Below are positions 23,243 to 55,685 of a stretch of 64,000 nucleotides of DNA, in pieces; within the stretch, counting starts at the first letter, position 1; each line of letters starts with the position of its first letter. The stretch comes from Candidatus Omnitrophota bacterium (GTDB lineage Bacteria > Omnitrophota > Gorgyraeia > Gygaellales > Profunditerraquicolaceae). The stretch lies in contig JBAZEH010000002.1 of NCBI GenBank assembly GCA_041653955.1, positions 24,380 through 88,379 of the forward strand, written 5' to 3'. The notes beneath the pieces are model-generated. The model did no database searches, was not told the origin of the DNA, and saw only the letters and a program-made list of their open reading frames with translations. The position numbers and the translations under genes were made by a program.

Positions 23243-23378
23243 TTGACGGACCGTTGTTTTGGGTGTATAAAAATACCAGGGAATAGATTTGGGTTTGGGA
23301 GCTAAAGAAGCTTCCAAAGGCTATTGGATGGTCGGGCCGCCATCTGTGATAATACAGGATGGCGGTCTTTTATTTTTT
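23243..23378 (+). ncRNA. candidate small RNA / leader: promoter TTGACG-17-TATAAA followed ~65 nt later by a strong intrinsic terminator
   Basis: TTGACG at 23243-23248 and TATAAA at 23266-23271. Terminator stem ccgccatc..gatggcgg at 23337-23365 plus tcttttatttttt. Confidence 0.3.
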
Positions 23379-40158: not shown

Positions 40159-40519
40159 TTGCGGTAAGGTAGTTTATTACGGGAAATACCTTGAGTTCCT
40201 TGAGGAGGCGCGCACGGAGTATTTTGACGAGAGAGGGTTACTCCTGAAGGAACTGGAGAAGCAGGGAGTATATTTTGTGGTCGCACGGCAGGAGATAGAC
40301 TATAAATACCCGGCTTTTTACGGGGATATTCTTACTATTAAAACTACGGTTTCCGGTATTTCTTCCGTGAAGGCCGTATTTGAATGCGAGATCACTAATC
40401 AGGATAACAAGGTAATCTCCACGGCGAAAACAATCCTTGTCTGCGTAAGCCGCGAACTAAAACCGCAGGCTATGCCGCAGGAACTACGCGAGAAACTTTC
40501 GGATAAAGGCAATAAATAA
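40127..40519 (+). CDS. YbgC/4HBT-family acyl-CoA thioesterase (hot-dog fold)
   Basis: HHTDCGKVVYYGKYLEFLEEARTEY typical YbgC N-terminus. Confidence 0.75.
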   Translation: MKVRIYYHHTDCGKVVYYGKYLEFLEEARTEYFDERGLLLKELEKQGVYFVVARQEIDYKYPAFYGDILTIKTTVSGISSVKAVFECEITNQDNKVISTAKTILVCVSRELKPQAMPQELREKLSDKGNK

Positions 40520-41223
40520 TGCGAATAACCTTAAAGGCTGCACTATTATTTATTTTTTTGTTTAGCGCTGTATCGGCGGCCATGGGCGATACGCTTTATC
40601 TTAAGAACGGACGCAAGATAAAGGGGGTTATCCAGCGGGACACGCCTGAATATGTGGATTTGGGAGTCGGCTCTGGTTCTGTTAGGTTTTACCGCGCGGA
40701 GATAGAGCGTATAGAGTTTTCGTCAGAGGAGCAAAACCGCGGATTAGAGAAGAATTGGGAGATAGAGCGCTTAAGGAAAGAGGAGAGGCTGGCTGAACAC
40801 CGGAGATTGGAAAAAGAGATTGAAGATGCCATGCCCAAAGAGGCCGAGGTCCGCAGCAAAGACGGGCATCTCTTTGTCAATGCATTATTGAATAGGAAGA
40901 CGACCGCCAGGTTTCTGGTAGATACCGGCGCTTCTATGATTGTGGTTTCCGCGCAGATAGCGAAAAAACTGAATGTAGATATAAAAGGCAATGATGCCAG
41001 CGAGATAAATATAACGCTGGCGGATGGCAGGGAGATATCAGGCAGGTACTTTAAGCTGGATACTATAAGCGTAGGCGAGGCCGTTGCAGAGGATATTGAC
41101 GCGGCAGTCATCTTGCAGGAGGATGCCTTTACGGATTTTGACGGGGTCCTCGGTATGTCATTCCTTAAATTATTCAAGTTTTCCATAGACCCGCAGGGAA
41201 ATAAGTTTATCCTGAACAAATAA
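40519..41223 (+). CDS. retropepsin-like (clan AA) aspartic protease with N-terminal signal/TM
   Basis: FLVDTGASMIVVS (DTGA active site). Confidence 0.7.
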   Translation: MRITLKAALLFIFLFSAVSAAMGDTLYLKNGRKIKGVIQRDTPEYVDLGVGSGSVRFYRAEIERIEFSSEEQNRGLEKNWEIERLRKEERLAEHRRLEKEIEDAMPKEAEVRSKDGHLFVNALLNRKTTARFLVDTGASMIVVSAQIAKKLNVDIKGNDASEINITLADGREISGRYFKLDTISVGEAVAEDIDAAVILQEDAFTDFDGVLGMSFLKLFKFSIDPQGNKFILNK

Positions 41224-41600: not shown

Positions 41601-43766
41601 ATGTCGGCAGTCAATTTTTTATGGTTAGCCCCTGTAGGTTCAATAATAGCACTTTTGTTCGCCTGGTACCTCGCGGCTTCTATCATGAAGAAAGGCGAAG
41701 GCAATGATAAGATGCGCGAGATAGCACAGGCAGTGCGGGTGGGCTCAAGGGCGTATTTAAAGAGGCAGTATTTAGGCGTATCTATATTTTTTCTGGTAGT
41801 ATTCTGCGTCCTTATGGTCCTGGCCATAAATAAATACCTGGTTATATTTGTTCCGTTCGCATTCCTCACCGGCGGCCTCTTCTCCGGCCTGGCTGGTTTT
41901 ATCGGTATGTCTATAGCTACCCAGGCGTCATCCCGTACCACTAATGAAGCAATGAAGGGTTTAAATTGCGGGCTGCGGGTGGCGTTTAATAGCGGCGCGG
42001 TCATGGGTATGGTGGTCGTGGGGTTAGGGCTCCTGGACCTGTCTATATGGTATTTTTTCTTAAATGCTTATTACGGAAGCTATAGTATCCCCGCGTGGAT
42101 ACCGCAATGGTTGTCTCCGTACCTTACATGGGCCTTTCAGGCGCACCCGTTACCTATCGGGACAGATAAGATCACCGCTATTACTTCCACGATGCTTTGT
42201 TTTGGTATGGGCGCCAGTTCGCAGGCGTTATTTGCCCGCGTGGGCGGAGGCATATTCACCAAGGCTGCGGATGTCGGCGCGGATTTAGTCGGTAAAGTTG
42301 AAGCGGGCATTCCCGAGGATGACCCGCGTAACCCCGCGGTTATCGCGGATAATGTGGGCGATAATGTAGGAGACGTGGCGGGTATGGGCGCGGACCTTTA
42401 TGAGTCTTACGTGGGTTCTATCGTGGCTACCGCGGCTTTAGGCGTGGCTGCGGGTTTGGGGGTTTCCGGGGTTACTGTTCCTATGGTAATGGCCGCGGTA
42501 GGGGTGGTGGCTTCCATTGTCGGGACATTCTTTGTCAGGTGCAGGGAAGAGTCTACTCAAAAGATATTATTGGTGGCGTTAAGAAAGGGGATATTTGTCA
42601 GCGCCGGATTAGTGGCCCTGATATCTTATTTCCTGGTTAAATATACTCTCGGTATTGAGCATATGGGAGTTTACTGGTCGGTATTATCGGGTTTGATCGC
42701 CGGAGTATTAATAGGATTATCTACCGAATATTTTACCTCAAGCCATTTTAAACCCACGCGGTCAATAGCCGAGGCGTCTTTAACCGGGCCCGCGACCGTT
42801 ATTATCGGGGGTATATCGGTAGGGATGATGTCAACGGCGATACCGGTGATCGTAATAGGCGTCGCGATATTATTGAGCTATTTTCTTTCGGGCGGCGCCG
42901 CTAATCCTAACGCCGGACTTTACGGAGTGGGGATTTCCGCGGTAGGCATGCTTTCTACCCTTGGAATAACACTGGCTACCGATGCCTATGGCCCGGTTGC
43001 TGATAATGCCGGAGGTAACGCGCAGATGGCGGGCCTTGATCCTGAGGTAAGGAAAAGGACGGATGCCCTGGATTCATTGGGCAATACTACCGCCGCTACG
43101 GGCAAAGGTTTTGCTATAGGTTCCGCGGCCTTGACCGCGCTTGCTTTAATAGCCGCTTATCGCGACCAGGTATCTTTATACGGGAAAGAGCTTAGCTTAA
43201 ACCTCATGCAGCCGAGTGTGCTGGTGGGCTTATTTATTGGGGCTATGCTGCCTTTCGCGTTCTGTTCTATGACGATGAGCGCGGTAGGGAGGGCGGCAGG
43301 AAAGATCGTAGTAGAAGTGCGTAGGCAGTTCAAGGAGATACTCGGGTTGATGGAAGGCAAGGCTAAGCCGGATTATGCGCGTTGCGTGACCATAGCCACT
43401 TCAGCGGCGCAGAAAGAGATGATCATCCCATCGCTCATGGCGATAATAGCTCCTATTGCCGTAGGGCTATTAGTCGGTGTAGAAGCTGTGGCAGGGCTTT
43501 TGACCGGAGCGACCGTAACAGGGTTTGCGTTGGCGGTAATGATGGCGAATTCCGGCGGCGCCTGGGATAATGCCAAGAAATATATAGAGGAAGGCCATTA
43601 CGGAGGGAAAGGTTCTCCCGCGCATAAGGCAGGGGTTGTCGGCGATACGGTAGGGGATCCTTTTAAAGATACCTCCGGCCCAAGCCTGAATATACTCATC
43701 AAGCTTATGTCCATGGTTTCGATAGTTTTCGCATCCTTCGTCATCTCCAACTCTTTCTTCAAATAG
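41601..43766 (+). CDS. hppA: membrane-bound proton-translocating pyrophosphatase
   Basis: [28 protein letters not shown], about 16 TM helices. Confidence 0.9.
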
Positions 43767-43823
43767 GGACACCTTTTCTGCCAATCGAGGGACACCCTTT
43801 TAGCCAAAGCTAAGGGTGTCCCT
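43765..43823. repeat. left inverted repeat with internal REP hairpin; overlaps the hppA stop codon
   Basis: agggacaccttttctgccaatcgagggacacccttttagccaaagctaagggtgtccct. Confidence 0.8.
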
Positions 43824-43830
43824 TTTCTTT

Positions 43831-44313: not shown

Positions 44314-44394
44314 TTATACCACCTCCTTTTAAATAAATAGACGTACTTAATTGCATTTTCTAACAACAAATTTTTACTCTTAATTTTACTCTTA

Positions 44395-44453
44395 AGGGAC
44401 ACCCTTAGCTTTGGCTAAAAGGGTGTCCCTCGATTGGCAGAAAGGGTGTCCCT
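44395..44453. repeat. right inverted repeat with internal REP hairpin
   Basis: agggacacccttagctttggctaaaagggtgtccctcgattggcagaaagggtgtccct. Confidence 0.8.
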
Positions 44454-44497
44454 AAAATAGTTATTTTTGTTGGGTTTTGTGGTATAATAAGCCCGTT

Positions 44498-45100
44498 ATG
44501 GATGATATTGAGTTTGTCCGCAGGTGTGTTAAAGGGGACAAGCGTTCGTGGGATGCGTTTGTAGAGCGGTACGCGTCCTTAATATACAATTATATTCATA
44601 GCACCCTCAAGATAAAAGGCCATACCTTTTCGCAGGAAAATATCAACGACCTCTTCCAAGAGATAATCCTTTCCTTATTCAAAGATAATTTCAGGAAATT
44701 AAGCACTTTTAAGGGCAGGAACGGCTGTAGCTTAGCCAGCTGGCTAAGGCAGGTGACTGTCAATTTTACTATTGACCACCTGCGCAGATTAAAACCCGCG
44801 CTTTCTCTTAATAATGATATAGGAGATAACTTAAGTTTCGCGGATATGCTGGTTTCTGATTCTCCGCCTGTAACCGATACCTTGAATCAGGAGGAAAGGC
44901 TTATGCACCTGAAGGATTGCATTGAAAGGCTCGGGATTAATGATAAGTATTTCCTGGAGCTGCATATTTATAGGGGGCTGAGTATAGAAGAGTTGAGGGT
45001 ATTCTTAAAAGTTTCACGCGCGGCTGCCGATATGCGTAAATCCCGTATTGTTGAGCGGTTGAAGGAGTGTTTCAGAAAAAAAGGGCTTATTTTACGTTAG
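44498..45100 (+). CDS. ECF-type RNA polymerase sigma factor (sigma-70 regions 2 and 4)
   Basis: Region 2 starts at about FVERYASLIYNYIH. Region 4 HTH LSIEELRVFLKVSRAAADMRKSR. An extended -10 TGgTATAAT at 44480-44488 lies just upstream of the ATG. Confidence 0.75.
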   Translation: MDDIEFVRRCVKGDKRSWDAFVERYASLIYNYIHSTLKIKGHTFSQENINDLFQEIILSLFKDNFRKLSTFKGRNGCSLASWLRQVTVNFTIDHLRRLKPALSLNNDIGDNLSFADMLVSDSPPVTDTLNQEERLMHLKDCIERLGINDKYFLELHIYRGLSIEELRVFLKVSRAAADMRKSRIVERLKECFRKKGLILR

Positions 45101-45143
45101 ATTTCCGGAGCAGTTGCGTCTATTGTAGAGGGAAGGAAGTGAG

Positions 45144-45851
45144 ATGACGCAGGAAAGATTGGAAGAATTAATAAGGGCGGTGTATAGAAGATGGAAAGAG
45201 GCGCAAGGCCCGGCGCAGGATCCGCATCCGGATGAGGAGGCCTGGGTTTCTTTTCTTGAAGGAAAGCTGGGGGCAAAAGATGAGGCGCGCGTAAAAAAGC
45301 ACCTGGTAGCCTGCCAGGGCTGCTCTGAGGTTCTGGCTGTGCTGGCCCGGTTGAGACAGGTACCCGGGGAAACGCCGCCTAAAGCGCTGATAGAATACGC
45401 CAAAAGCCTGGTCGCAGCGCAAGATATAAATTCCGCCGCGCAGATAGTCATTATGCTCAAGGAGAAGGCAATGGAGGTATTGTCCATTACCGGGGATATC
45501 CTTATAGGCAGGGAGTTTATCCCTGCGCCTGTGTTGCGCAGCCGCCGGATAAAAGAATTTAAGGATGAGATCACCGTCTTAAAGGATTTTAAAGATATAA
45601 GAGTAGAGGTAAGAATAGAGAGGAAGGGAGCTCATCTATTTGATATGTTCGTATATGTTAAAGATAAACAGGCTAATCGCGTAATCAGGGACCTTAGGGT
45701 CACCCTCCTTAAAGACGATTTAGAGCTTGAATCCTACCTCACATCTTCAGACAAGGTAACTTTTGAGCACGTGCTGGCCGGTAAATATAATATTGAGATA
45801 TCGAATATTGACGACAAGATCGCTTCAGTATTGCTGGACATAAGAAAATAA
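45144..45851 (+). CDS. zinc-finger (ZAS-type) anti-sigma factor, cytoplasmic
   Basis: HLVACQGCSEVL (H-x3-C-x2-C). Position directly after the ECF sigma gene. No TM. Confidence 0.65.
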   Translation: MTQERLEELIRAVYRRWKEAQGPAQDPHPDEEAWVSFLEGKLGAKDEARVKKHLVACQGCSEVLAVLARLRQVPGETPPKALIEYAKSLVAAQDINSAAQIVIMLKEKAMEVLSITGDILIGREFIPAPVLRSRRIKEFKDEITVLKDFKDIRVEVRIERKGAHLFDMFVYVKDKQANRVIRDLRVTLLKDDLELESYLTSSDKVTFEHVLAGKYNIEISNIDDKIASVLLDIRK

Positions 45852-45856
45852 TAAGG

Positions 45857-48058
45857 ATGGAAGAAGCGGATACTTTGGTCTTGGAGATATTAAGGCAGGA
45901 CGGCGCGCTTGCGATGAGTATCATGGAAGGCGATGGGCTCGTCCAGACCGTAAAACACTACAGCAGCCTCACCGTATCATTCTCCGAAATAAATAAGATA
46001 TGCCGGGAAGTGATGTCTATAGTCAGCAGGGCCAGCAGGAAAGGCGCCCTGCTTTCTGATTATACGGATAACATTAAAAGGGCGGGGCAGATGCTATGGG
46101 ACCATCTGTTGACGCGCCAAGTCAAGGGTAAGCTGGCCTCGACAATGATCAAAGACCTCATTCTTTCCATAGACGAAGAGTTGATTAATATCCCGTGGGA
46201 ACTGCTTTATGACGGACAAGATTTTTTATGCTTAAAATTCAATCTGGGGAGGTTAGTCAGGACTAAAGAGCCGGTCGTAGTTAAGGCATACCGCAGCTTA
46301 AAGAGCGCCCCAAGGATGTTGATATTGGCTGACCCTACAGGAGACCTGAGGTCTGCCTACCTTGAAGGGCTGTATATAAAGAACCAGTTTGAACGCAAGA
46401 GGGGCCAGATAGGGGTAGATTTTAAATCCACCCGTATCGACGCGCTATATGTAAAGAAGAACTTGCGCGATTACGATATAGTGCATTTTGCCGGCCACTG
46501 CGAATATGACGAGGGTGATCCGCGGAATAGCGGATGGATCCTGAATGACGGAAGGTTCACTACGGCAGAAGTGCTCGCTTTAGGTGAAAGCCTTTCTTTT
46601 CCGAGCCTGATATTCTCTAATGCCTGTTATTCGGCAAAGGCCGCAGCCGGTACGGCAGAGGAGGATTACCACGAAAAAAACTATAGCCTCGCATCCGCGT
46701 TCCTGTTTTCCGGGGTCAGGCATTATATCGGCACTATATGGAAAGTGGAAGACCCCGTAAGCCTTTTCTTTGCCAAAGAATTCTACGCGCATCTGGTCAA
46801 AGGCGATTCTGTAGGCGAATGCATTCGCCTCTCACGCCTGAAGTTGATAAAGGAGTATGGTATCGGTGCCATATTATGGGCAAGTTACCTTCTTTACGGG
46901 GACCCTAATTTCGTATTGTTCAGGCGCAAGCCGCGTGCCGTGCCGTTTAAATTCAGGAGGGATATCTCTTCGTATAAGAGGGGGCTGGCAGGAGTTCTCA
47001 TTGCGCTTTTTGCCATATCCGCGGTTTTATTCCTGCATATCTGGTTGCCTGCGAGGAACCCTACGGCCATCTTTTCACTAATGAGATCCAGGAGATTATT
47101 CCTTAAAGGCGATAATCGGGAGGTTATCTCCATCTGCAGCGGGATCATAGAGAAAGAGCCTTCTTTCCTCGCGGTTTATCCGTTGATCGCGGATACGTAC
47201 GAGAGGCTGGGAGATAGGGGCAGCGCTTTGAGGTATTATTTTGATTACGCCCTTGCCAGCGAAAAGAAGAGGGATAAAAGGCATCTATCATCGGCTTATA
47301 TCGGTATCGCGTGGTGTTATCATCAACAAGGGGTACGCCAGGAGGCCCTTGATTTTTATAATAAGGCGGTCGCGTTAAGCAGGCAGACACGCGACAAATT
47401 GAATGAGGCTTCCGCCCTAAGAAAACTAGCGGTCTGGCATATAGATAAGGAGGATTACGATAAGGCGCTTGAGTTGCTGACAAAAAGCTCAGAGATCAAC
47501 CGTGAAAGAAAAGGCTCAAAAGAGCACGCTTACAATCTTGCCTGCGATTATTTTGATATGGGCCTGGTTTTTGCCAATAAGGATGATTATCCCGCGGCTA
47601 AGGAGTTTTATCATAAGAGCCGTGTTATATTCGAGAAGCTTAACCTGAGGAACGAATTAAGCGACTGTTATTTCAACATAGGAGAGATATGCTTTTTTGA
47701 GAAAGAATACCATAAGGCCCTTGATTATTATATGCGGGGGCTGAAGATAGAAGAATCGCAGGGGAACAGGCCGGGCCTGGCGAGCGGTTATAATATGATA
47801 GGCGAATTATACGCGCAGATGAACAACTTTGATGAGGCCGAAAGGTTCTTTGACCGTTCGATAATTATCTCCAGAAAAATAAATGCGCGCCCGGAATTGG
47901 CGTCCGCGTGCTATAATATGGGTATTCTTTATAAAAATAAAGGCAAGAAAAATAAGGCGCGGGATTACCTGAGGCAGGCGCAGGAGATATACCGGTTGAC
48001 GGATATATCCTGTTACGAGGAGATAAAAGAGGAGCTTATAAGCCTGGATAGCATATAG
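45857..48058 (+). CDS. CHAT-domain (caspase-like) protein with central TM helix and C-terminal TPR repeats
   Basis: Caspase-like His/Cys dyad in HFAGHCEYDEGD and IFSNACYS. TM GLAGVLIALFAISAVLFLHIWL. Six or more TPR-like repeats. Start 6 nt after the anti-sigma stop. Confidence 0.8.
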   Translation: MEEADTLVLEILRQDGALAMSIMEGDGLVQTVKHYSSLTVSFSEINKICREVMSIVSRASRKGALLSDYTDNIKRAGQMLWDHLLTRQVKGKLASTMIKDLILSIDEELINIPWELLYDGQDFLCLKFNLGRLVRTKEPVVVKAYRSLKSAPRMLILADPTGDLRSAYLEGLYIKNQFERKRGQIGVDFKSTRIDALYVKKNLRDYDIVHFAGHCEYDEGDPRNSGWILNDGRFTTAEVLALGESLSFPSLIFSNACYSAKAAAGTAEEDYHEKNYSLASAFLFSGVRHYIGTIWKVEDPVSLFFAKEFYAHLVKGDSVGECIRLSRLKLIKEYGIGAILWASYLLYGDPNFVLFRRKPRAVPFKFRRDISSYKRGLAGVLIALFAISAVLFLHIWLPARNPTAIFSLMRSRRLFLKGDNREVISICSGIIEKEPSFLAVYPLIADTYERLGDRGSALRYYFDYALASEKKRDKRHLSSAYIGIAWCYHQQGVRQEALDFYNKAVALSRQTRDKLNEASALRKLAVWHIDKEDYDKALELLTKSSEINRERKGSKEHAYNLACDYFDMGLVFANKDDYPAAKEFYHKSRVIFEKLNLRNELSDCYFNIGEICFFEKEYHKALDYYMRGLKIEESQGNRPGLASGYNMIGELYAQMNNFDEAERFFDRSIIISRKINARPELASACYNMGILYKNKGKKNKARDYLRQAQEIYRLTDISCYEEIKEELISLDSI

Positions 48059-48067
48059 GAGATTACT

Positions 48068-48631
48068 ATGAGGTATGTATCGCTGTTGATCGCGGTTTTA
48101 TTTTTATTGAATATCGCAGGCTGCTCTATTCCTGTGTCTTCAACCAGAAGCTCTTTATGCAGCTTTACGAAAGAGGAGAAGAGAAGTAAAAGTATGTTTA
48201 TGGCGAAGAGCGCGGTTACCGTTAAGGATTTCCGCGAGAACGAGGCATACGAGGAAGACATGGAAGGCCTTAAAGAAGATGTAGAGGAGTATATCTTGCT
48301 GCATCCTGAATTGAGCGAACAGGTAAAAAATGACTTGCGCCAGATAAAGGTAACGCGGGGGATGGGGGAAGAGGAAGTACTTTTATTATTAGGTAAACCG
48401 GATAAGATGATGCGGTCCGCGGCTAAAGGTAAATACGGGGCTTCGCAGGTGTGGATATATAAGATAAACAAGATACGGGCGTTCACCATATTCATCTTTC
48501 CGGTATTTTTCCCCCATGAAGCGTATTACCTGTATTTTAGAGATGGCGCCCTGGCTGAGATAGAAAGACATTCCCTTAAACAGACTGTCCAGCAGGGTAA
48601 AGATTCAATACCGGGAGAGAGAAGGAATTGA
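48068..48631 (+). CDS. hypothetical lipoprotein
   Basis: Lipobox LLNIAGCS. Confidence 0.5.
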   Translation: MRYVSLLIAVLFLLNIAGCSIPVSSTRSSLCSFTKEEKRSKSMFMAKSAVTVKDFRENEAYEEDMEGLKEDVEEYILLHPELSEQVKNDLRQIKVTRGMGEEEVLLLLGKPDKMMRSAAKGKYGASQVWIYKINKIRAFTIFIFPVFFPHEAYYLYFRDGALAEIERHSLKQTVQQGKDSIPGERRN

Positions 48632-48653
48632 TACCGTGAGCCGGGAGGATAAT

Positions 48654-49061
48654 ATGAAAGTAATACCGATCATCTGCCTGGCAGCGCTTCTTCTGCTATC
48701 GGCGGGAGATGTTTATGCCCAGAATCAATCACCGCAGCCCGAAGAGCAGGATGCTGTGATTGAGGCTACAGCCGGAGAATATTTTACTATCAATCTTGAG
48801 TCTAATCAGGTGCTGGGATTGAAATGGCGGCTCGCCAAGCCCATTGATCCGGATATGGTTAAACTCATAAACGTAAAGTTCCAACGGGCCACCGCCAGGA
48901 TATTGGCCATACCCGGAGAAGAGACCTGGAGATTCAGGGCAATGAAATCAGGTACGACGATTATACATTTAAAGTACACAAGCTCCTCTAATAGAAACGC
49001 CCCGCCCAAACAGGAGAAGATATTTACGATAAACGTAAAAGAACCTCCTAAATCAAAATAA
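48654..49061 (+). CDS. hypothetical secreted protein
   Basis: GGGAGGA RBS, ATG at 48654, signal peptide MKVIPIICLAALLLLSAGDVYA. Confidence 0.5.
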   Translation: MKVIPIICLAALLLLSAGDVYAQNQSPQPEEQDAVIEATAGEYFTINLESNQVLGLKWRLAKPIDPDMVKLINVKFQRATARILAIPGEETWRFRAMKSGTTIIHLKYTSSSNRNAPPKQEKIFTINVKEPPKSK

Positions 49062-49144
49062 AGGCCCAGGAACAACCCCCTGTATAAAAAATACCGTTAG
49101 ATCGGGCTTCTTCTTTCGTCTATTGTTCTTGAAAGGAGGAGTAA

Positions 49145-50704
49145 ATGAAAAAATATATTGTGTTTGGGGCAATAGCGGTTTTCTTTTGTTTTTGTGTGGG
49201 GTTTGAATGTTTGGCAGAGGAGTTGTCATGGCAGAATATCAGCAGGGAGAATATGGATTTGAGGGCACTCCTGGTGGATGCGGATAATCCGGCTAATATT
49301 TATATAGGGGCGTCCGGCAGGATTCTAAAAACAGCCGATAGCGGGGATATCTGGAGGAATGCGCTCTCGGTAAAAGGAGGAGACCCGCGCATAAACTTCT
49401 TATCTTTTGATTATGGCCGTAAAGATCATTTATACGCCGCTACGGGAAACGGGTTGTTTTATAGCCTCAACCGGGGAGACACCTGGAAGAGGATATTTAG
49501 AGGGAAGGATTATCTTGAGAGTGAGTGCACCTGCGTGGCAGTTTTACCGGGCATTATTTACCTTGGGACGAAAGGAGGGTTGTTTACCAGCCAGAACAGG
49601 GGCCGCAGCTGGCGTAAGGAACCGGGAGAATTAGGCAGCAGCCCGATCGCGGCTTTAGCGTCTGATTCAGGAGGGCCCGCGTATATCTATGCCGCTACTA
49701 CGAACAGCGTATTCATAAATAAACACCGCGGCGGGGCATGGGAGAAGGCTATTATCGGAGGGTTGTCCAGAAGAGATACTATTGAAACAGAAGGGGGAGA
49801 TGAATATAGCGATGAAGAGGAGTTATCTTCCGGCATAAGGCATATTGCCATTGACCCTCGTAATCCGGATTGCCTTTACGCCGCTACATCCGAGGGCATA
49901 TATAAAAGTTGCGACCGGGGGCGTGCCTGGGAGGCATTTGCGTCTTACGGGTTGCTTAATAAAGAAACAAGTTTTATCCTTTTTTCCGGCAGGGGGAGCC
50001 TTTATGCTATTAGCAGGGGAGGGATATTTGAGTATGGAGGGGGCCGCTGGCAAGAGTTATCGATCGGCCTGGCTGCGGAAAAGATAAGGTTTTTGGCTTC
50101 GGATAAACATAATAATTTATACGCCGCCTGCGATAGAGGGTTATTTAAGACAATACGGACCGGCTATATCCCCGCGGAAGGTACAATCTCATTATATTAT
50201 GAAGGTGAGCCCGGGATCCGGGATATCCAGAAGGCGGCTATTCAATACGCGGAGGTGGGCGCGAATAAGATAAAAGAGTGGAGAAGGCGCGCGGCCAGGA
50301 AGGGGATATTGCCGCGGCTTACCGTTGGATTAGACAGAAGCGCCACGGATCTCTGGCATTGGGAATCCGGCTCAAGCACAAAGGTTGAGGATGATATATT
50401 AAGGAAAGGGCGCGATGTTATAGAATGGGATATAACTTTAAGCTGGGATCTAAGCGAGCTTATATGGAGCAGCGAGCAAACTTCAATAGATGCGCGCTCG
50501 CGGCTGATGGTGCAGTTGCGCGAAGATATACTGGATGAGGTGACGAAATTATACTTTGAACGCATAAGGGTAAAGGTGGAGCTGGATAGCCTGTCTATTG
50601 AAGATAGAAAGAAGAGATTTGACAGGGAACTTAAATTGAAAGAGCTTACCGCCTCTCTTGACGGGCTTACAGGAGGATATTTTTCATCACGCATTATAGA
50701 CTAA
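49145..50704 (+). CDS. secreted beta-propeller-like protein (BNR/Ycf48-like repeats) with C-terminal coiled region
   Basis: Signal peptide. Repeated SxDxGxxW-like motifs: ADSGDIWRN, NRGDTWKRI, NRGRSWRKE, HRGGAWEKA, DRGRAWEAF. Confidence 0.6.
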   Translation: MKKYIVFGAIAVFFCFCVGFECLAEELSWQNISRENMDLRALLVDADNPANIYIGASGRILKTADSGDIWRNALSVKGGDPRINFLSFDYGRKDHLYAATGNGLFYSLNRGDTWKRIFRGKDYLESECTCVAVLPGIIYLGTKGGLFTSQNRGRSWRKEPGELGSSPIAALASDSGGPAYIYAATTNSVFINKHRGGAWEKAIIGGLSRRDTIETEGGDEYSDEEELSSGIRHIAIDPRNPDCLYAATSEGIYKSCDRGRAWEAFASYGLLNKETSFILFSGRGSLYAISRGGIFEYGGGRWQELSIGLAAEKIRFLASDKHNNLYAACDRGLFKTIRTGYIPAEGTISLYYEGEPGIRDIQKAAIQYAEVGANKIKEWRRRAARKGILPRLTVGLDRSATDLWHWESGSSTKVEDDILRKGRDVIEWDITLSWDLSELIWSSEQTSIDARSRLMVQLREDILDEVTKLYFERIRVKVELDSLSIEDRKKRFDRELKLKELTASLDGLTGGYFSSRIID

Positions 50705-50825: not shown

Positions 50826-51752
50826 ATGTACAGTGATGATATAAAGCATATAATAGAGAATATTGAAAAAGTCATTGTCGGTAAGACCGAAACGGTGAAG
50901 CTTTTGCTTGTCGGGCTCCTTACCAAGGGGCATATTTTAATAGAAGATGTGCCCGGACTTGGAAAAACAACTCTTGCCCTTGCCCTTGCCAAATCAATAA
51001 GCGCTGATTTTAAGAGGATACAGTTTACTCCCGACCTTCTCCCTTCGGATGTATCCGGAGGTTTTGTCTATAGCCCCAAGACAGGGGAATTTGATTTTAA
51101 GAAGGGGCCGGTTTTTACGAATATACTTTTAGCCGATGAGATCAACAGGACTACCCCCCGGACGCAGTCGGCGCTGCTTGAATGCATGCAGGAGTATAAT
51201 GTCTCTTTGGACGGGAAGACATTCGCCCTGCCCAATCCCTTCATAGTGGTCGCTACCCAGAATCCCATAGAATATCAGGGGACCTACCCTTTGCCTGAAG
51301 CCCAGATAGACAGGTTCTCAATGAAGATAAGCATGGGGTATCTGCGCGCCGAGGAGGAAGTGAAGGTTATATCGGGGCAAAAGGTGCAGCATCCTATTGA
51401 AGGCCTGCAGCCGGCGATGACGCTTGAGAAAGTTTTACAACTGCAGGAAGAAGTAAAGAAGGTCCAGGTTTCGGCTAACGTTATGGATTATATCGTGAAA
51501 CTCGTTTCCGGTACCCGCAACAGAGAAGAGGTAAAATTAGGAGCCAGCCCCCGCGCCTCTATCGCTCTTATGAAGGCAAGTTCAGCGTGGGCCCTGCTTG
51601 AAGGAAGGGATTACGTTATCCCGGAAGACGTGGTGAACCTTCTTCCCTGGGTATTGAAGCACAGGATAATATTACAGCCTAAAGCGTTGATCGCCGGCAA
51701 AAGCCCGGAATCTGTGGTTTCTGATCTCTTAAAAGTCACTCCCATCCCTTAA
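50826..51752 (+). CDS. MoxR-family AAA+ ATPase
   Basis: Walker A GLGKTT, Walker B LLADEINR, sensor regions. Confidence 0.85.
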   Translation: MYSDDIKHIIENIEKVIVGKTETVKLLLVGLLTKGHILIEDVPGLGKTTLALALAKSISADFKRIQFTPDLLPSDVSGGFVYSPKTGEFDFKKGPVFTNILLADEINRTTPRTQSALLECMQEYNVSLDGKTFALPNPFIVVATQNPIEYQGTYPLPEAQIDRFSMKISMGYLRAEEEVKVISGQKVQHPIEGLQPAMTLEKVLQLQEEVKKVQVSANVMDYIVKLVSGTRNREEVKLGASPRASIALMKASSAWALLEGRDYVIPEDVVNLLPWVLKHRIILQPKALIAGKSPESVVSDLLKVTPIP

Positions 51753-51761
51753 AAAGCGGAT

Positions 51762-52997
51762 ATGCTTAAGATATACCTTAAAAGGTGGCTCTTCCTTTTT
51801 ATCCTCATTATATCCAACCTGCTTATAGCGCTTCGCACATCATTGAATTTCTTTTTCATGTTTTTCTGGTTCCTGGTTTCCCTGGTATTTATCAGCCTGG
51901 GGTGGATTGCCATAGAATATTTCGGGATAAGCCTCTTTTTGTCAAGAAGGACCACTACCAAGCTGGAAGAAGATGATATAGTAGAAATAGAGACTGTAAT
52001 TAAGAATAAAAGTTTACTGCCGTTATTTAATTTTATCCTGGAGGACCATCTTACCTGCGCTGCTACCGGGGAAAAGAGGCATAGATCTTTGTTAGAGTAT
52101 GTCGCGCCCCGTTCAACGGTTACCTTGAACTACCGCTGCCAGTGCCCGAAAAGGGGCAGGTATGAAATAGGCCCTTTTGATATTTATCTTTTTGACCCAT
52201 GGGGCCTCTTTTTTATAAAGAAGACGTTCTTTGTGTATTCCGAGTTATACGTATATCCGCGTACTTTCAATATACCCAAATTTCCCGCCTTGGCGAAAGG
52301 GACCGCTCCCTGGTACGGGATAGAGACCAGCCGCGTAAGCGGTGATGACCATGAATTTTATGGTATCAGGGAATATAAGCCGGGAGACCCGATAAAAAGG
52401 ATACACTGGTTCTCCAGCGCCCGCCAGAACAAACTGATAGTTAAGCAGTTCCAGCACCAGGTATTTTTCAGGGCGACCGTCATCTTTAACCTTAACAAAG
52501 ACAGGAACTATGGGGAAGGAAAGGACAGCGTAGCGGAATACATCATCAAGATAGCCGCTTCCGTAGTTAAATATTTTATTGACCGTAACGTCTCCGTGGA
52601 ACTCATAGCGCATATAGGGGAAACGGTCCATATTCCTTTTAATAAGGGGCCGGAGCACCTTGAGGATATCTTCAGGCTTCTGACCATAGCCGAGGCGGAG
52701 AGCAGGGTCGGGCTGGATGAGTTATTCCAGGAATTCGCACCTTATATACCTAATGATTCCAGCTTGATCGCGATAGTGCCGGATGAAGACTGGGAGTTTT
52801 TATCCGCGATGTTATCATTGAGAGTCAGGAATGTTTCGCTGATACCGCTGATATTGAACTCTTCTTCGTTCCTGCGCCCTTCCCAGATAGACAGGGACAG
52901 GGGGCCTTCGCAGATAAAATCTTCGCAGGCGTTTGACGCCGCGCCCATATTCTTCTCTCGCGGCGATAACCTGGGGCAGGTTTTTCTTAAATATTAA
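51762..52997 (+). CDS. DUF58-family protein (MoxR partner), N-terminal TM
   Basis: Position after MoxR. Conserved DUF58 region DHEFYGIREYKPGDPIKRIHW. Confidence 0.7.
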   Translation: MLKIYLKRWLFLFILIISNLLIALRTSLNFFFMFFWFLVSLVFISLGWIAIEYFGISLFLSRRTTTKLEEDDIVEIETVIKNKSLLPLFNFILEDHLTCAATGEKRHRSLLEYVAPRSTVTLNYRCQCPKRGRYEIGPFDIYLFDPWGLFFIKKTFFVYSELYVYPRTFNIPKFPALAKGTAPWYGIETSRVSGDDHEFYGIREYKPGDPIKRIHWFSSARQNKLIVKQFQHQVFFRATVIFNLNKDRNYGEGKDSVAEYIIKIAASVVKYFIDRNVSVELIAHIGETVHIPFNKGPEHLEDIFRLLTIAEAESRVGLDELFQEFAPYIPNDSSLIAIVPDEDWEFLSAMLSLRVRNVSLIPLILNSSSFLRPSQIDRDRGPSQIKSSQAFDAAPIFFSRGDNLGQVFLKY

Positions 52998-55685
52998 ATG
53001 AAAGAAAAAGACCGTTATCTGTTACCGGAGATATTATTTACCTTTCTTCTTATAGAGTCGGTGATCCTTCTCTTCGGAGAGATCATCCATCCTTACGGCG
53101 CGTACCTCTCTCTTGGGTTGATGGGCGGTTTTGCTATCAGCTGGTTTATACGTAATATGCATGTCCCCCTGACCAGGATTAGCGTGAATATCGCTATCCT
53201 GGGGGTTTTCGCCTGGATAGTATATTCGCTGGTAAACTCATCTTTTCTTTATAGAGAGATCATCGCCATATTTATACGAGGGCTGTTTATTATAGAGATC
53301 ATCTTAAGCCTTAATATCCGCTATGCCTCCTTCCTTACATATATCCAGGTCTTAAGCGTCCCTTTATTTATGTGTTTTCCCATATTTGTCAGTGATTACA
53401 ATGAAGGGCATATAGTATTAGTTTTATCTTATATTATTTTCTGGATAATAATACTGAAGATAAAATTCTACGCGTTTGTCAAGGTGCATGAAGAAAAAAG
53501 GATCGGCAGGTACGCGCACCTGTTTGTTTTCGCGTTGATCCTTTTAATTATTTTATCTCTGGCCTGGTTTCTTTTTAAACGCACTGCGCTAAGCGGGATC
53601 GAAAAAGGGGGAGTGCTTTTTGAGGAACACATAGGATCGCAGGCGCAGGGCGATCTGCTGGAGAAGGAGTATTACAGCCTTCAGGACCAGATACAGAAAG
53701 AGATATCGGATATGATACCCGGCCTTGATTTTCAGGAAGACAGGCAGGAGACTCTCACGCTGCTTAGTTTGCTGATAAAGGAATCTCCGACTATTGCCGA
53801 GGTCCGCAAGGCAAGGCTTGGGCTTATCAGCCGCCTGAGGGAGCCGGGGCCAGGATTAGAGAAGGCAAAAGGCGAAGAGATAACCGATGCCATACAGAAA
53901 TACGTAGAAAAAAAGATCCGGTTTAATATGAAAAGGACCACTGATAATATAGCGGATAACCTTAAAAAGAATAGATTCAACCTGGCGGATATATTCTCTG
54001 TTTCGGAGAAGATGAACAAGATGCAAAATGCCAAATCAAGGGAAGAGATAAGAAAATATGCCGGGGAGATGAAGGATATTATTAACGCCTCTTCCGCGGG
54101 GGACCAGCCTAAGAGAGAGTTGTGTAAACTCATAGAGAAACTTAAAGATTGGAAAACATTTGATACCTATCGCAATAAGGCGGACGCTTTGGATAAAAGA
54201 GCCGATACTATGGATGAACGGCCAGGGGAAGAGTTAAGAGACCTGCTTTCACAGATCGGGAATGCGGAGCGTTCTTCAGAGTTAAAAGAAACGGAAAAGA
54301 ACGCGGAGAAGTTCAAGGGAGGGCTTTCGCTTAAAGATAAAGACGCATCCGATAAGGCAAGTGAGCTCCTGGGCCTTAAGTCGGATATGGCGCTATCCGA
54401 TAAGGCCGGGCTGCTCAAAGATGAGATAAAAGACCTTAAGATACCAGATGATTCCCGTCAGGAACTGGAAGAGCGGGTAGAAGGCATTAGAGACGCGGAT
54501 GGTCATCGCAAGTTTTCCGAAGAATTATCGGGATACCAGGACAAGATAGATGAAAACAGGGTGGATATCCCGGCGGAAACGGAGGAGTTGTTAGATATAA
54601 AAGCCCACCTTCTTTTTAACGCCAAGAAAGAGGATATCAGGGGGGAACTTCAAAAAAGCAATCTGCCTGATAAGGGGGAGCGTTTTATGGGAGACCTGGA
54701 AAAGCTTGAGGAAGCCGAAGAGATAGACAAGCTGGTTTCAGATACCGATAAATTAAAGGGGCAGATAAGAGAGATGTCGGAACAGGGGCTTATTTCAAAG
54801 TTATCCACAGACAAGCTGATACGGGATATGGGCGAGATCGCAGAGATATTGTTATCTAAATTGAAGGCAGGCGAGATCTCCAAAGAAGGCAGGAAGGGGC
54901 GGGATAGGCGCATGAGCGCCGATTACCGCGATGAGCTTATCAGGTCTATTGAAGAATCTTCTTTGGATACGGATAAAAAAGAAACCTTAAAACAGCTCGC
55001 GCAGGCATTGGATAACGCGCAAAATATTTCTCAGCTTGAAAGTGTAAGGGAGATGACGGATAAGGAGCTTAAAGAATTACCCTCGGAGAAAACAAAGAGG
55101 GATGATATTGAGAAGATCAGGGGATCCTTTGAGAGTTCCTTTAAAACGAAGAGTATATTTATGACTGAAGAGAATCTTGCCGCTTTGAGAGAAAAAACGA
55201 ACGAGTTGCGCGAAATTAATCCCCAGGCGGCGGAAAAGATCGAGGCGGAATTAATGAAAATAAGGGATAGCCGTACCGCCGAAGAATTGAAGAAGCGCGT
55301 AGACGGATTTAAGGAACTCATGGATTCCCGGGAGCAGGAGTTGAAGGAACAGGTAAAGGAGCAAAAGAAAGAGGAGGGGGATCCGCAGATATATATCCTG
55401 CCTGTTAACCCGGTTATGCCCCCGGGTTCTTCGCTTACTTTAGCGGCGGTAGCCGTTTATAATAAGACATTTATCAAGGCGCTCGTTCCGGAAGCCAAAT
55501 GGTTTTCTTCCCAGCCGCATATCGCCTGGGTGGATAATTCGGGCACGATACACACTATGGCGAAAGGAAGCACGCAAATATACGCCAGATACGGCGGCAA
55601 AGAAAGCCAAAAGGTGCAAGTTACGGTTGTAGATAGTATAGACGAACAAATAAGCAAGGCAGTAGAGAGGGCACTTGTAAGATAA
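52998..55685 (+). CDS. large membrane protein: N-terminal multi-TM domain, long K/E-rich coiled-coil, C-terminal Big_2 Ig-like domain
   Basis: Seven or more hydrophobic helices in the first 200 aa. About 550 aa of charged repeats. The C-terminus KGSTQIYARYGGKESQKVQVTVVD is Big_2-like. Confidence 0.6.
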   Translation: MKEKDRYLLPEILFTFLLIESVILLFGEIIHPYGAYLSLGLMGGFAISWFIRNMHVPLTRISVNIAILGVFAWIVYSLVNSSFLYREIIAIFIRGLFIIEIILSLNIRYASFLTYIQVLSVPLFMCFPIFVSDYNEGHIVLVLSYIIFWIIILKIKFYAFVKVHEEKRIGRYAHLFVFALILLIILSLAWFLFKRTALSGIEKGGVLFEEHIGSQAQGDLLEKEYYSLQDQIQKEISDMIPGLDFQEDRQETLTLLSLLIKESPTIAEVRKARLGLISRLREPGPGLEKAKGEEITDAIQKYVEKKIRFNMKRTTDNIADNLKKNRFNLADIFSVSEKMNKMQNAKSREEIRKYAGEMKDIINASSAGDQPKRELCKLIEKLKDWKTFDTYRNKADALDKRADTMDERPGEELRDLLSQIGNAERSSELKETEKNAEKFKGGLSLKDKDASDKASELLGLKSDMALSDKAGLLKDEIKDLKIPDDSRQELEERVEGIRDADGHRKFSEELSGYQDKIDENRVDIPAETEELLDIKAHLLFNAKKEDIRGELQKSNLPDKGERFMGDLEKLEEAEEIDKLVSDTDKLKGQIREMSEQGLISKLSTDKLIRDMGEIAEILLSKLKAGEISKEGRKGRDRRMSADYRDELIRSIEESSLDTDKKETLKQLAQALDNAQNISQLESVREMTDKELKELPSEKTKRDDIEKIRGSFESSFKTKSIFMTEENLAALREKTNELREINPQAAEKIEAELMKIRDSRTAEELKKRVDGFKELMDSREQELKEQVKEQKKEEGDPQIYILPVNPVMPPGSSLTLAAVAVYNKTFIKALVPEAKWFSSQPHIAWVDNSGTIHTMAKGSTQIYARYGGKESQKVQVTVVDSIDEQISKAVERALVR

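Follow-up and report, generated by a model that had tools for sequence, protein, structure and literature searches.

A conserved ECF sigma factor, anti-sigma factor and transmembrane CHAT protein triad in Omnitrophota: a candidate protease-gated sigma switch

A 64,000-nucleotide stretch of a Candidatus Omnitrophota bacterium metagenome-assembled genome (NCBI GenBank assembly GCA_041653955.1, contig JBAZEH010000002.1, positions 24,380 to 88,379), referred to here as the window, carries three adjacent genes. They encode a sigma factor of the extracytoplasmic function (ECF) type, a putative soluble anti-sigma factor of the ZAS (zinc-binding anti-sigma) type, and a 733-amino acid protein in which a caspase-like CHAT module, a single transmembrane (TM) helix, and a tetratricopeptide repeat (TPR) domain follow one another. 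Genes for a lipoprotein, a small secreted protein, and a secreted beta-propeller protein lie downstream, and a cassette with a RAYT (REP-associated tyrosine transposase)-like gene and repetitive extragenic palindromic (REP)-like hairpins lies upstream (Table 1). A preliminary description, made by reading the DNA alone, had proposed the six genes from the sigma factor to the beta-propeller protein, and all six open reading frames (ORFs) were found in the order and at the positions that it gave. The gene for the CHAT-TM-TPR protein spans positions 45857-48058 and starts 5 nt past the stop codon of the anti-sigma gene. NCBI and JGI both have a record of an identical CHAT protein, on an 89.9-kb contig. 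The sigma, anti-sigma, and CHAT-TM-TPR genes very probably constitute one functional unit, and the CHAT protein may control the sigma factor by cutting the anti-sigma factor.

Table 1. Features of the sigma/anti-sigma/CHAT locus, with positions in the window
Feature	Position	Strand	Basis or remark
Left 61-nt inverted-repeat arm with REP-like hairpin (GGGACACC...GGGTGTCCC)	43764..43824		Edge of the RAYT cassette
RAYT-like Y1 (IS200-type) transposase gene, 160 aa	43831..44313	-	Y1_Tnp, PF01797
Promoter motif ahead of the RAYT gene	44336..44364	-	GTTAGA 44364-44359; CGTCTA 44343-44338, then TT; exact match
Right 61-nt inverted-repeat arm with REP-like hairpin	44394..44454		Edge of the RAYT cassette
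Putative housekeeping-type promoter of the sigma gene, extended -10 (TGgTATAAT)	44480..44488	+	Conserved position, read from the sequence
ECF (group 4) sigma factor, 200 aa	44498..45100	+	TIGR02937, Sigma70_r2
Promoter motif ahead of the anti-sigma gene	45096..45124	+	-35-like GTTAGA 45096-45101; -10-like CGTCTATT 45117-45124
Putative soluble ZAS-type anti-sigma factor, 235 aa	45144..45851	+	Motif, ortholog conservation, AlphaFold2 secondary structure
N-terminal region and CHAT caspase-like module (aa 1-365), predicted cytoplasmic	45857..46951	+	PF12770, dyad
Single TM helix (aa 377-399)	46985..47053	+	27/27 orthologs
TPR domain, predicted extracytoplasmic, putative sensor (aa ~440-733)	47174..48058	+	TPR_12, AlphaFold2
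Lipoprotein, 187 aa, lipobox IAGC, no family match	48068..48631	+	Few loci only
Secreted chagasin-family (I42) cysteine-peptidase inhibitor	48636..49061, likely ATG 48654	+	PF09394
Promoter motif ahead of the beta-propeller gene	49096..49124	+	GTTAGA 49096-49101; CGTCTATT 49117-49124
Secreted BNR/Ycf48-like beta-propeller protein, 519 aa	49145..50704	+	Pfam; C-terminal ~180 aa without a family

The gene triad and its proteins

Orthologs were scanned with one genome per species. At least 228 species carry a relative of the CHAT-TM-TPR protein, the best 80 loci were fetched, and every protein of the window was compared by tblastn with these 80 loci and with four further loci. The sigma and anti-sigma genes lie directly upstream of the CHAT gene in 78 of the 79 informative Omnitrophota species loci. 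Six loci fall outside the 78; five of them are contig ends, and L033 has a gap that could not hold a complete anti-sigma gene. Across the 228 or more species, the module is near-universal, single-copy-like, and 50-73% identical. The outer flanks differ among loci, which may or may not contain a proton-pumping pyrophosphatase (H+-PPase) gene or MoxR/DUF58 genes, and in which an inserted histidine kinase gene or glycosyltransferase genes can be found. Therefore, the triad is kept together by more than general co-linearity.

Distant relatives were searched exhaustively with the CHAT module alone (aa 1-370), which gave 765 representatives (50% identity) at E<=1e-30. The best 150 of these are 35-64% identical to the query, nearly all over almost the whole module (~360 aa), and are 229-1908 aa long. 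The gene context was examined for six of them (L085-L090). The sigma-linked relatives among these are about 38-47% identical in the CHAT module. In L085 (Ca. Gygaella obscura), the sigma gene is followed by a 219-aa gene and a CHAT gene of 1251 aa. L086 has the order sigma, 240-aa protein, 131-aa TM protein, CHAT, whereas L087 is rearranged, with the CHAT gene followed by the sigma gene and a 244-aa gene. In L088 a 262-aa anti-sigma homolog precedes the CHAT gene and a transposase-like gene occupies the place expected for sigma, and in L089 the sigma gene, a 275-aa gene, and a CHAT gene with a CsgG-like C-terminus are followed by a gene for a TPR-CsgG protein. The small proteins of L085 to L089 all match a hidden Markov model (HMM) of the Omnitrophota anti-sigma factor (E 1e-46, 6e-47, 5e-42, 3.5e-37, and 4e-9), and all five keep the HxxxCxxC motif. 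The conserved synteny anticipated in the preliminary description is thus found in 78 of the 79 informative loci and in distant relatives, including the rearranged L087. This distant recurrence, together with survival of the rearrangement, indicates that the linkage of the sigma factor, the anti-sigma family, and the CHAT-TM protein is ancient.

The linkage does not extend to all CHAT proteins. No sigma or anti-sigma gene was found near the CHASE2-CHAT gene of L090, and the association is so far that of one clade of the CHAT family and not a general CHAT property. The architectures sampled in the family include cyclase-CHAT-TPR-CsgG/LpoB-like, CHASE2-CHAT, and CHAT with a long TPR region, mostly with a TM helix followed by TPR or CsgG-like domains. 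N-terminal extensions of 210-260 aa, approximately the size of the anti-sigma factor, are common in the family. A fusion of the anti-sigma factor to CHAT was considered for these and rejected, as Pfam assigns the extension to an adenylate/guanylate cyclase domain and none of the 150 representatives matches the anti-sigma HMM.

The sigma protein scored 61.1 bits against the TIGR02937 ECF model (cutoff 42.9; aa 17-191 covered) and 29.1 bits against Sigma70_r2 (Pfam gathering score 24). The product of the next gene lacks a TM segment (its 19-aa Kyte-Doolittle mean peaks at 1.1) and carries the motif H53-x3-C57-x2-C60. All of 60 orthologs keep H28, H53, C57, and C60, and some orthologs carry a pre-annotated PF13490 domain. 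In distant homologs the position of H28 is occupied by Cys. H28 is a candidate fourth ligand, because metal ligands exchange in this way; it lies 25 residues before H53, a spacing like that in ChrR. AlphaFold2 (AF2), read at the level of secondary structure, places six helices up to about aa 113, of which the first four resemble an anti-sigma domain. A stretch of low confidence (aa 108-139) follows and then an all-beta C-terminal domain. Motif and gene context together suggest that this protein is a ZAS anti-sigma factor that holds the neighbouring sigma factor.

Conservation in the anti-sigma orthologs is highest in the linker (aa 111-140, 0.85), followed by the beta-domain (0.80), and lowest in the sigma-binding domain (0.65). 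At ~30% identity, the N-terminal half and the linker retain H53, C57, C60, G117, P127, and R132, and a handful of beta-domain residues are likewise invariant. The anti-sigma profile touches known ZAS domains weakly (DdvA, E 0.2; RsiW, E 0.4).

The third protein matches CHAT (PF12770) over aa 75-349 at 2e-30 (106.6 bits, gathering score 24) and TPR_12 at 3e-33. Its His/Cys dyad, already pointed out in the preliminary description, consists of H214 (FAGHCEY, codon 46496-46498) and C257 (SNAC, codon 46625-46627). Neither residue varies in 27 orthologs (54-73% identity) or in five distant sigma-linked relatives (about 38-43% identity), and both align with the dyad region of Csx29.

Membrane topology was predicted from the sequence, with lysine and arginine (K/R) counted on either side of the TM segment. 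A single TM helix was found at about aa 377-399 in 27 of 27 orthologs. It is preceded by 5-9 K/R and followed by 2-5, and the N-terminus of these proteins is acidic and without a signal peptide. In the distant relatives, the helix lies at aa 368-398, straight after the CHAT module in all. The positive-inside bias, the lack of a signal peptide, and the single helix therefore predict that CHAT is cytoplasmic and that TPR lies outside, which is the topology first proposed. Some relatives carry CsgG/LpoB-like C-terminal domains past the TM helix. Domains of this kind are periplasmic, and their location fits the predicted orientation. AF2 modelled aa 400-730 entirely as helical repeats with a predicted local distance difference test (pLDDT) score above 90.

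Promoter motif, regulon and neighbouring genes

The ECF-type promoter motif GTTAGA-N15-CGTCTATT is newly defined here; it was first met upstream of the beta-propeller gene as the bipartite GTTAGAT(T)-N-CGTCTATT. The strict pattern GTTAGA-N14-16-CGTC[T/A]A gave 129 matches in 1.2 Mb of related loci versus ~0.6 in shuffled sequences. A 15-nt spacer is shared by 126 of the 129, and the TT after CGTCTA is invariant in 123 sites, though the pattern did not demand it. Genes were then counted by class, a gene being scored when the motif lay on its coding strand and no more than 300 nt upstream. The motif precedes 69 of 79 anti-sigma genes, with a median distance of 20 nt from the -10 element to the start codon, as well as 49 of 57 beta-propeller genes and 8 of 8 RAYT genes. 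It was found upstream of none of the sigma (0/72), CHAT (0/81), PPase (0/39), MoxR (0/8), lipoprotein (0/7), or chagasin (0/4) genes.

In the 64-kb window there are exactly three exact copies (45096, 49096, and 44364 on the minus strand), all at the locus, and matches with two mismatches occur at chance level. At the sigma/anti-sigma junction, GTTAGA (45096-45101) overlaps the TAG stop codon of the sigma gene (45098-45100). In other loci it is the final sense codons of sigma that the -35-like box covers, in differing reading frames, and the motif is therefore conserved as DNA and not as protein. The junction motif is also present in L085 and L087 and, as GTTAGT, in L086, and all three loci have more copies downstream of their triad operons. 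A fixed spacer, strand specificity, a CGTC-type -10 element, about 20 nt to the start codon, and a constant position beside the ECF gene lead to its reading as the probable promoter of that sigma factor. The motif is assigned to this sigma factor by association, from co-location and co-conservation.

The sigma gene itself appears to be expressed differently. An ECF autoregulatory promoter was looked for ahead of it and found in 0 of 72 species; a sigma-70-type extended -10 element is present instead. TATAAT begins 11-15 nt ahead of the sigma start codon in 63 of 72 species, often in the extended TGn form. In the window, 9 nt separate the end of TGgTATAAT from ATG 44498, which is taken as the start codon in preference to the upstream TTG 44477 because the conserved promoter fills that stretch. 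There is no room for a Shine-Dalgarno sequence, and transcription would be expected to start at or beside the ATG, which argues for transcription by the housekeeping sigma factor into a leaderless mRNA. The conserved promoter position suggests that sigma mRNA is probably leaderless and constitutive. Positive autoregulation is usual for ECF sigma factors. The circuit that emerges here, with a constitutive sigma factor and a sigma-dependent inhibitor, protease, and outputs, would differ from this usual arrangement.

Several observations concern the motif in other loci. In the CHASE2-CHAT, TPR-CHAT, TPS-ShlB, and DUF928 locus of L090 (L090:8691-13700), five copies of a similar bipartite sequence, TG[C/T]AAGAT-N14-C(G)TC[T/A]ATT, precede genes that follow one another. 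The copies suggest that genes near other CHAT-family loci are under the control of a related ECF-type sigma factor whose own gene lies elsewhere. In one lineage (L001:10890-13184), a histidine kinase gene of the GAF-PAS type and a response regulator gene are inserted straight behind the motif and ahead of the beta-propeller gene, which places the two-component system under the same promoter. In eight loci (L004, L007, L014, L024, L027, L036, L041, and L054), an insert of 40-80 nt with a GC-rich hairpin (e.g., CACCTGGCGC...GCGCCAGTG) sits between the motif and the beta-propeller start codon. It could be a regulatory element of the 5' untranslated region or a REP insertion.

The preliminary description treated the three genes behind the triad as three secreted proteins. 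The three are not equivalent. The beta-propeller protein is the conserved output of the regulon, as its gene is widely kept nearby and has the sigma-type promoter, whereas the lipoprotein and the chagasin-like protein are sporadic passengers. The latter, recorded earlier simply as a small secreted protein, is a chagasin-type inhibitor, which had been overlooked. It matches Inhibitor_I42 (PF09394) at 1.8e-15 (57.4 bits, gathering score 27.2), has a signal-peptide-like N-terminus, and occurs in four loci only (the window, L006, L008, and L014). Inhibitors of the I42 family target papain-like (clan CA) enzymes. A role of the chagasin-like protein as a regulator of CHAT was considered and is unlikely because the inhibitor is secreted and CHAT is predicted to be cytoplasmic; its clan CA targets and its presence in only four loci were counted against it as well.

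The RAYT/REP insertion upstream of the triad, reported in the preliminary description, was recovered as a Y1_Tnp gene bracketed by the 61-nt inverted arms. The arms (43764-43824 and 44394-44454) are 98% complementary, with the hairpins GGGACACC/GGGTGTCC. The protein matches PF01797 at 8e-16 (58.7 bits, gathering score 23) and has its HUH motif in the form HIHLIL. Between the -10 end of its promoter motif and ATG 44313 there are 24 nt, which include the Shine-Dalgarno sequence GGAGGTGG. The sigma regulon probably includes the RAYT gene, which has its own promoter copy in all eight related loci where it occurs, and an ECF regulon would then have a REP-associated transposase among its targets.

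Other genes of the window were also inspected. Behind the beta-propeller gene lies a Bat/MoxR-like operon (50826-57862), which encodes a MoxR AAA+ ATPase, a protein of the DUF58 family, and two large TM/coiled-coil proteins of 895 and 725 aa. These genes are kept behind the beta-propeller gene in some loci, and the sigma-type promoter was found at 0 of 8. A secreted retropepsin-like aspartyl protease (40519-41223, plus strand; gag-asp_proteas/Asp_protease_2, 1e-18) is encoded upstream of the H+-PPase gene, and its gene has the same position in L004 and L006. An nhaA-I riboswitch-type RNA (23291-23345, plus strand; RF03057, 53.3 bits, gathering score 37) is the one Rfam family in the 64-kb window that exceeds its threshold.

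A possible proteolytic switch and its alternatives

The arrangement of the locus is consistent with a switch operated by proteolysis. The housekeeping extended -10 promoter would provide constitutive transcription of sigma as a leaderless or near-leaderless mRNA, and the N-terminal ZAS domain of the anti-sigma factor would keep the sigma factor inactive. A signal from outside, sensed by the TPR domain, would activate the cytoplasmic CHAT domain, most plausibly through induced oligomerisation, as in other caspase-like enzymes. CHAT would then cut the anti-sigma factor in the conserved and predicted-flexible linker near P127...R132, possibly after R132. The N-terminal fragment of the anti-sigma factor would be lost after the cut, and the sigma factor would be set free, by analogy with Csx29-Csx30-CASP-sigma. 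Free sigma factor would read GTTAGA-N15-CGTCTATT promoters. Its targets would be the anti-sigma/CHAT operon, which would provide negative feedback and reset, the beta-propeller gene as output, and the RAYT gene where present.

The step on which this scheme turns, cleavage of the anti-sigma factor by CHAT, is suggested by the same analogy and is given a probability of roughly one half. Several clan CD peptidases cut after Arg, and the invariant Arg132 is a candidate P1 residue in the linker. The complete picture is more tentative. In it, a transmembrane caspase-like receptor protease, with CHAT in the cytoplasm and a TPR or CsgG-like sensor outside, would pass on an envelope signal by cutting a soluble ZAS anti-sigma factor at a linker with an invariant Arg and without intramembrane proteolysis. 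This would be a previously undescribed mode of ECF sigma control, acting as a core regulator at a fixed chromosomal place in hundreds of Omnitrophota species and related lineages and with a promoter code that includes a REP-associated transposase.

Several points weigh against the proposed scheme. The domains named in the preliminary description were recovered by HMM search for CHAT, TPR, and the ECF sigma factor; the anti-sigma factor of the window, however, reached only 19.7 bits against Pfam zf-HC2 (gathering score 22.2), though its HxxxCxxC motif is invariant. Its AF2 model has a mean pLDDT of 56, and the CHAT core (aa 126-299) was modelled with a pLDDT below 50. The TPR domain contains seven Cys residues, which is unusual though possible for a periplasmic domain. 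Many ECF promoters typically have an 'AAC' core in the -35 element, and the promoter motif is without it. The absence of an anti-sigma-CHAT fusion among the best 150 of the 765 representatives leaves the pairing without Rosetta-stone support. In addition, the conserved adjacency also fits a CHAT protein that is a co-expressed effector and not the regulator.

An effector of this type is the basis of the first alternative. The sigma/anti-sigma pair could be a self-contained redox or thiol sensor that responds to oxidation of the ZAS zinc site, as RsrA does, and the CHAT-TM-TPR protein could be a co-transcribed regulon member or effector with other cytoplasmic substrates. The putative zinc ligands are invariant and a further Cys36 is near-invariant in the orthologs, but the anti-sigma factor of the window has Ser at position 36. 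The strongest conservation of the anti-sigma factor is found in the linker and the beta-domain and not in the ZAS domain, which points to a conserved protein partner. ECF operons often hold conserved non-regulatory third genes, and the CHAT gene sits behind a sigma-type promoter in the manner of a target. In L087, however, the CHAT gene lies upstream of sigma, outside the sigma-type promoter, and is still adjacent. A self-contained redox sensor is considered unlikely.

CHAT could also act on something other than the anti-sigma factor. It might cut itself in the juxtamembrane region, cut the sigma factor, or serve as a non-catalytic scaffold that brings the sigma/anti-sigma complex to the membrane and releases sigma by partner switching. 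Within the CHAT-TM-TPR protein, conservation is lowest and basic character strongest in the juxtamembrane stretch (aa 351-376), and DdvA was proposed to self-cleave its linker (PMC11506125). Direct cleavage of a sigma factor by PCaspase has been described (10.1101/2023.06.23.546230). The invariant dyad speaks against a purely non-catalytic role, and the conserved, apparently flexible linker with an invariant Arg is found in the anti-sigma factor and not in sigma. A CHAT module released by self-cleavage would still need a downstream substrate. A different mode of action of this kind is less likely still.

It is very improbable that the module serves anti-phage defence or abortive infection, like Craspase, SAVED-CHAT, and the DdvA-controlled islands: although the known CHAT/(anti-)sigma modules are defence-linked and L085 has a ThsB_TIR gene 0.7 kb upstream of sigma and L087 a NERD/helicase gene nearby, a search of PADLOC-DB v2 gave no meaningful match for any of the seven proteins and only weak generic ones (TPR, 2.4e-10; PDC-S39, 3.2e-5; PDC-M01B, 0.0014; BovA, 0.0049), the window has no Cas-sized ORF or CRISPR array, the chromosomal position beside housekeeping genes (H+-PPase, MoxR/DUF58) is fixed, the near-universal distribution and 50-73% identity in at least 228 species are unlike those of patchy, fast-turnover islands, and the conserved output is a secreted beta-propeller protein.

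If CHAT does cut the anti-sigma factor, the classical logic of envelope stress would be inverted, with the protease as the membrane sensor and the anti-sigma factor as a soluble cytoplasmic substrate. The system would be an apparently fixed and conserved regulator in Omnitrophota, a phylum that is almost all uncultured and in which regulation is barely known. With the promoter motif, the regulon can be computed for whichever Omnitrophota genome is at hand. The scheme is testable in a heterologous host from four parts, namely the sigma factor, the anti-sigma factor, the CHAT domain, and a reporter, and it would offer synthetic biology a natural, compact, protease-gated sigma switch.

Comparison with known systems

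The preliminary description was aware of no CHAT protease characterised as the regulated protease of an ECF sigma/anti-sigma pair. This premise is outdated by Csx29-Csx30-CASP-sigma (PMC10028731) and by DdvA (PMC11506125). The known cases in which a CHAT protease is linked to a sigma factor all belong to loci of phage defence (type III CRISPR and DdvA), and in these the protease senses cytoplasmic nucleic-acid signals or is periplasmic and fused to the anti-sigma factor. A search of openly readable full texts gave no account of the module for Omnitrophota, and the CHAT-linked ECF groups that it found were only DdvA and type III-E; subscription-only papers (e.g., supplements of ECF classifications) lay outside its scope.

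In type III-E systems, the ECF-like (RpoE-like) CASP-sigma is bound and inhibited by Csx30, and Csx29, a TPR-CHAT protein, cleaves this inhibitor (PMC10028731). As in the locus described here, the gene for a protease with CHAT and TPR domains stands beside genes for an ECF-like sigma factor and a soluble inhibitor (PMC10028731). The inhibitor consists of an N-terminal sigma-binding part, which is predicted in the present case, and a C-terminal part. Cleavage of the inhibitor lifts the inhibition, and the sigma factor activates genes of its own locus; the same logic is proposed here. The 64-kb window, however, has no Cas7-11, CRISPR RNA (crRNA), or CRISPR array and no ORF longer than 895 aa. 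Csx29 is soluble with the order NTD-TPR-CHAT, whereas the present protein is membrane-anchored with the order CHAT-TM-TPR. The trigger is RNA in type III-E and presumably extracytoplasmic here, and the inhibitor is Csx30 in the former and a ZAS-type anti-sigma factor in the latter. The CHAT protein scored 15.9 against the NCBIfam Csx29 model NF041237 (cutoff 300). A special kinship between the sigma factor and type III-E CASP-sigma was considered and rejected. The match to the NCBIfam III-E sigma model NF041236 (32.8 bits, cutoff 100) is weaker than the generic SigW and BldN matches and therefore reflects general ECF similarity only.

DdvA of Myxococcus xanthus is an anti-sigma factor with its own TPR-CHAT domain (PMC11506125). 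It has been called the only characterised TPR-CHAT anti-sigma factor, with DdvA-like proteins in Myxococcota and one Comamonas (PMC11506125). The DdvA/DdvS pair shares with the present locus an ECF sigma factor and a cytoplasmic ZAS-type domain (zinc, CHCC/HCC) (PMC11506125, PMC6061681). DdvA also has TPR and CHAT domains with a conserved His/Cys dyad and a single TM helix, and CHAT proteolysis was proposed as its activation. In contrast, DdvA is one polypeptide with the order ZAS-TM-scaffold-TPR-CHAT, whereas two genes and the order CHAT-TM-TPR are found here. The CHAT domain of DdvA is periplasmic and release depends on intramembrane proteolysis by RseP, whereas the present CHAT domain is predicted to be cytoplasmic. 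With a separate soluble anti-sigma factor, a cytoplasmic CHAT domain, and only the TPR domain outside, no intramembrane step would therefore be required.

A dedicated, signal-activated protease beside a sigma factor, as proposed here, is also part of CalpL-CalpT-CalpS and of SAVED-CHAT/PCaspase/PCc-sigma, which are linked to type III CRISPR (10.1101/2023.06.23.546230). Cleavage of a soluble anti-sigma factor (CalpT) or of the sigma factor itself and activation by ligand-induced oligomerisation are described for them (10.1101/2023.06.23.546230). These systems differ in that cyclic oligoadenylate acts through a SAVED domain, CalpL is Lon-like and not CHAT, and the proteases are soluble and belong to defence loci.

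In DegS/RseP-RseA and PrsW/RasP-RsiW, an envelope signal leads to proteolysis of the anti-sigma factor and to release of the ECF sigma factor, and the anti-sigma gene lies beside the sigma gene (PMC10028731, PMC11506125). There the anti-sigma factor is itself the membrane-spanning protein, and serine proteases or metalloproteases cut it first on the outside and then inside the membrane. In the scheme proposed here, in contrast to such classical proteolysis, the protease would span the membrane and the substrate would be cytoplasmic. Multidomain CHAT proteins (CHASE2-CHAT, cyclase-CHAT-TPR, and HetF-like) share the N-terminal region and the CHAT module with the present protein. The locus would resemble the type III-E, DdvA, and Calp/SAVED-CHAT modules in principle, with a dedicated CHAT protease as the gate of an ECF-type sigma factor. 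It is a member of none of these three and stands as a distinct split, transmembrane, non-CRISPR variant in an apparently housekeeping context.

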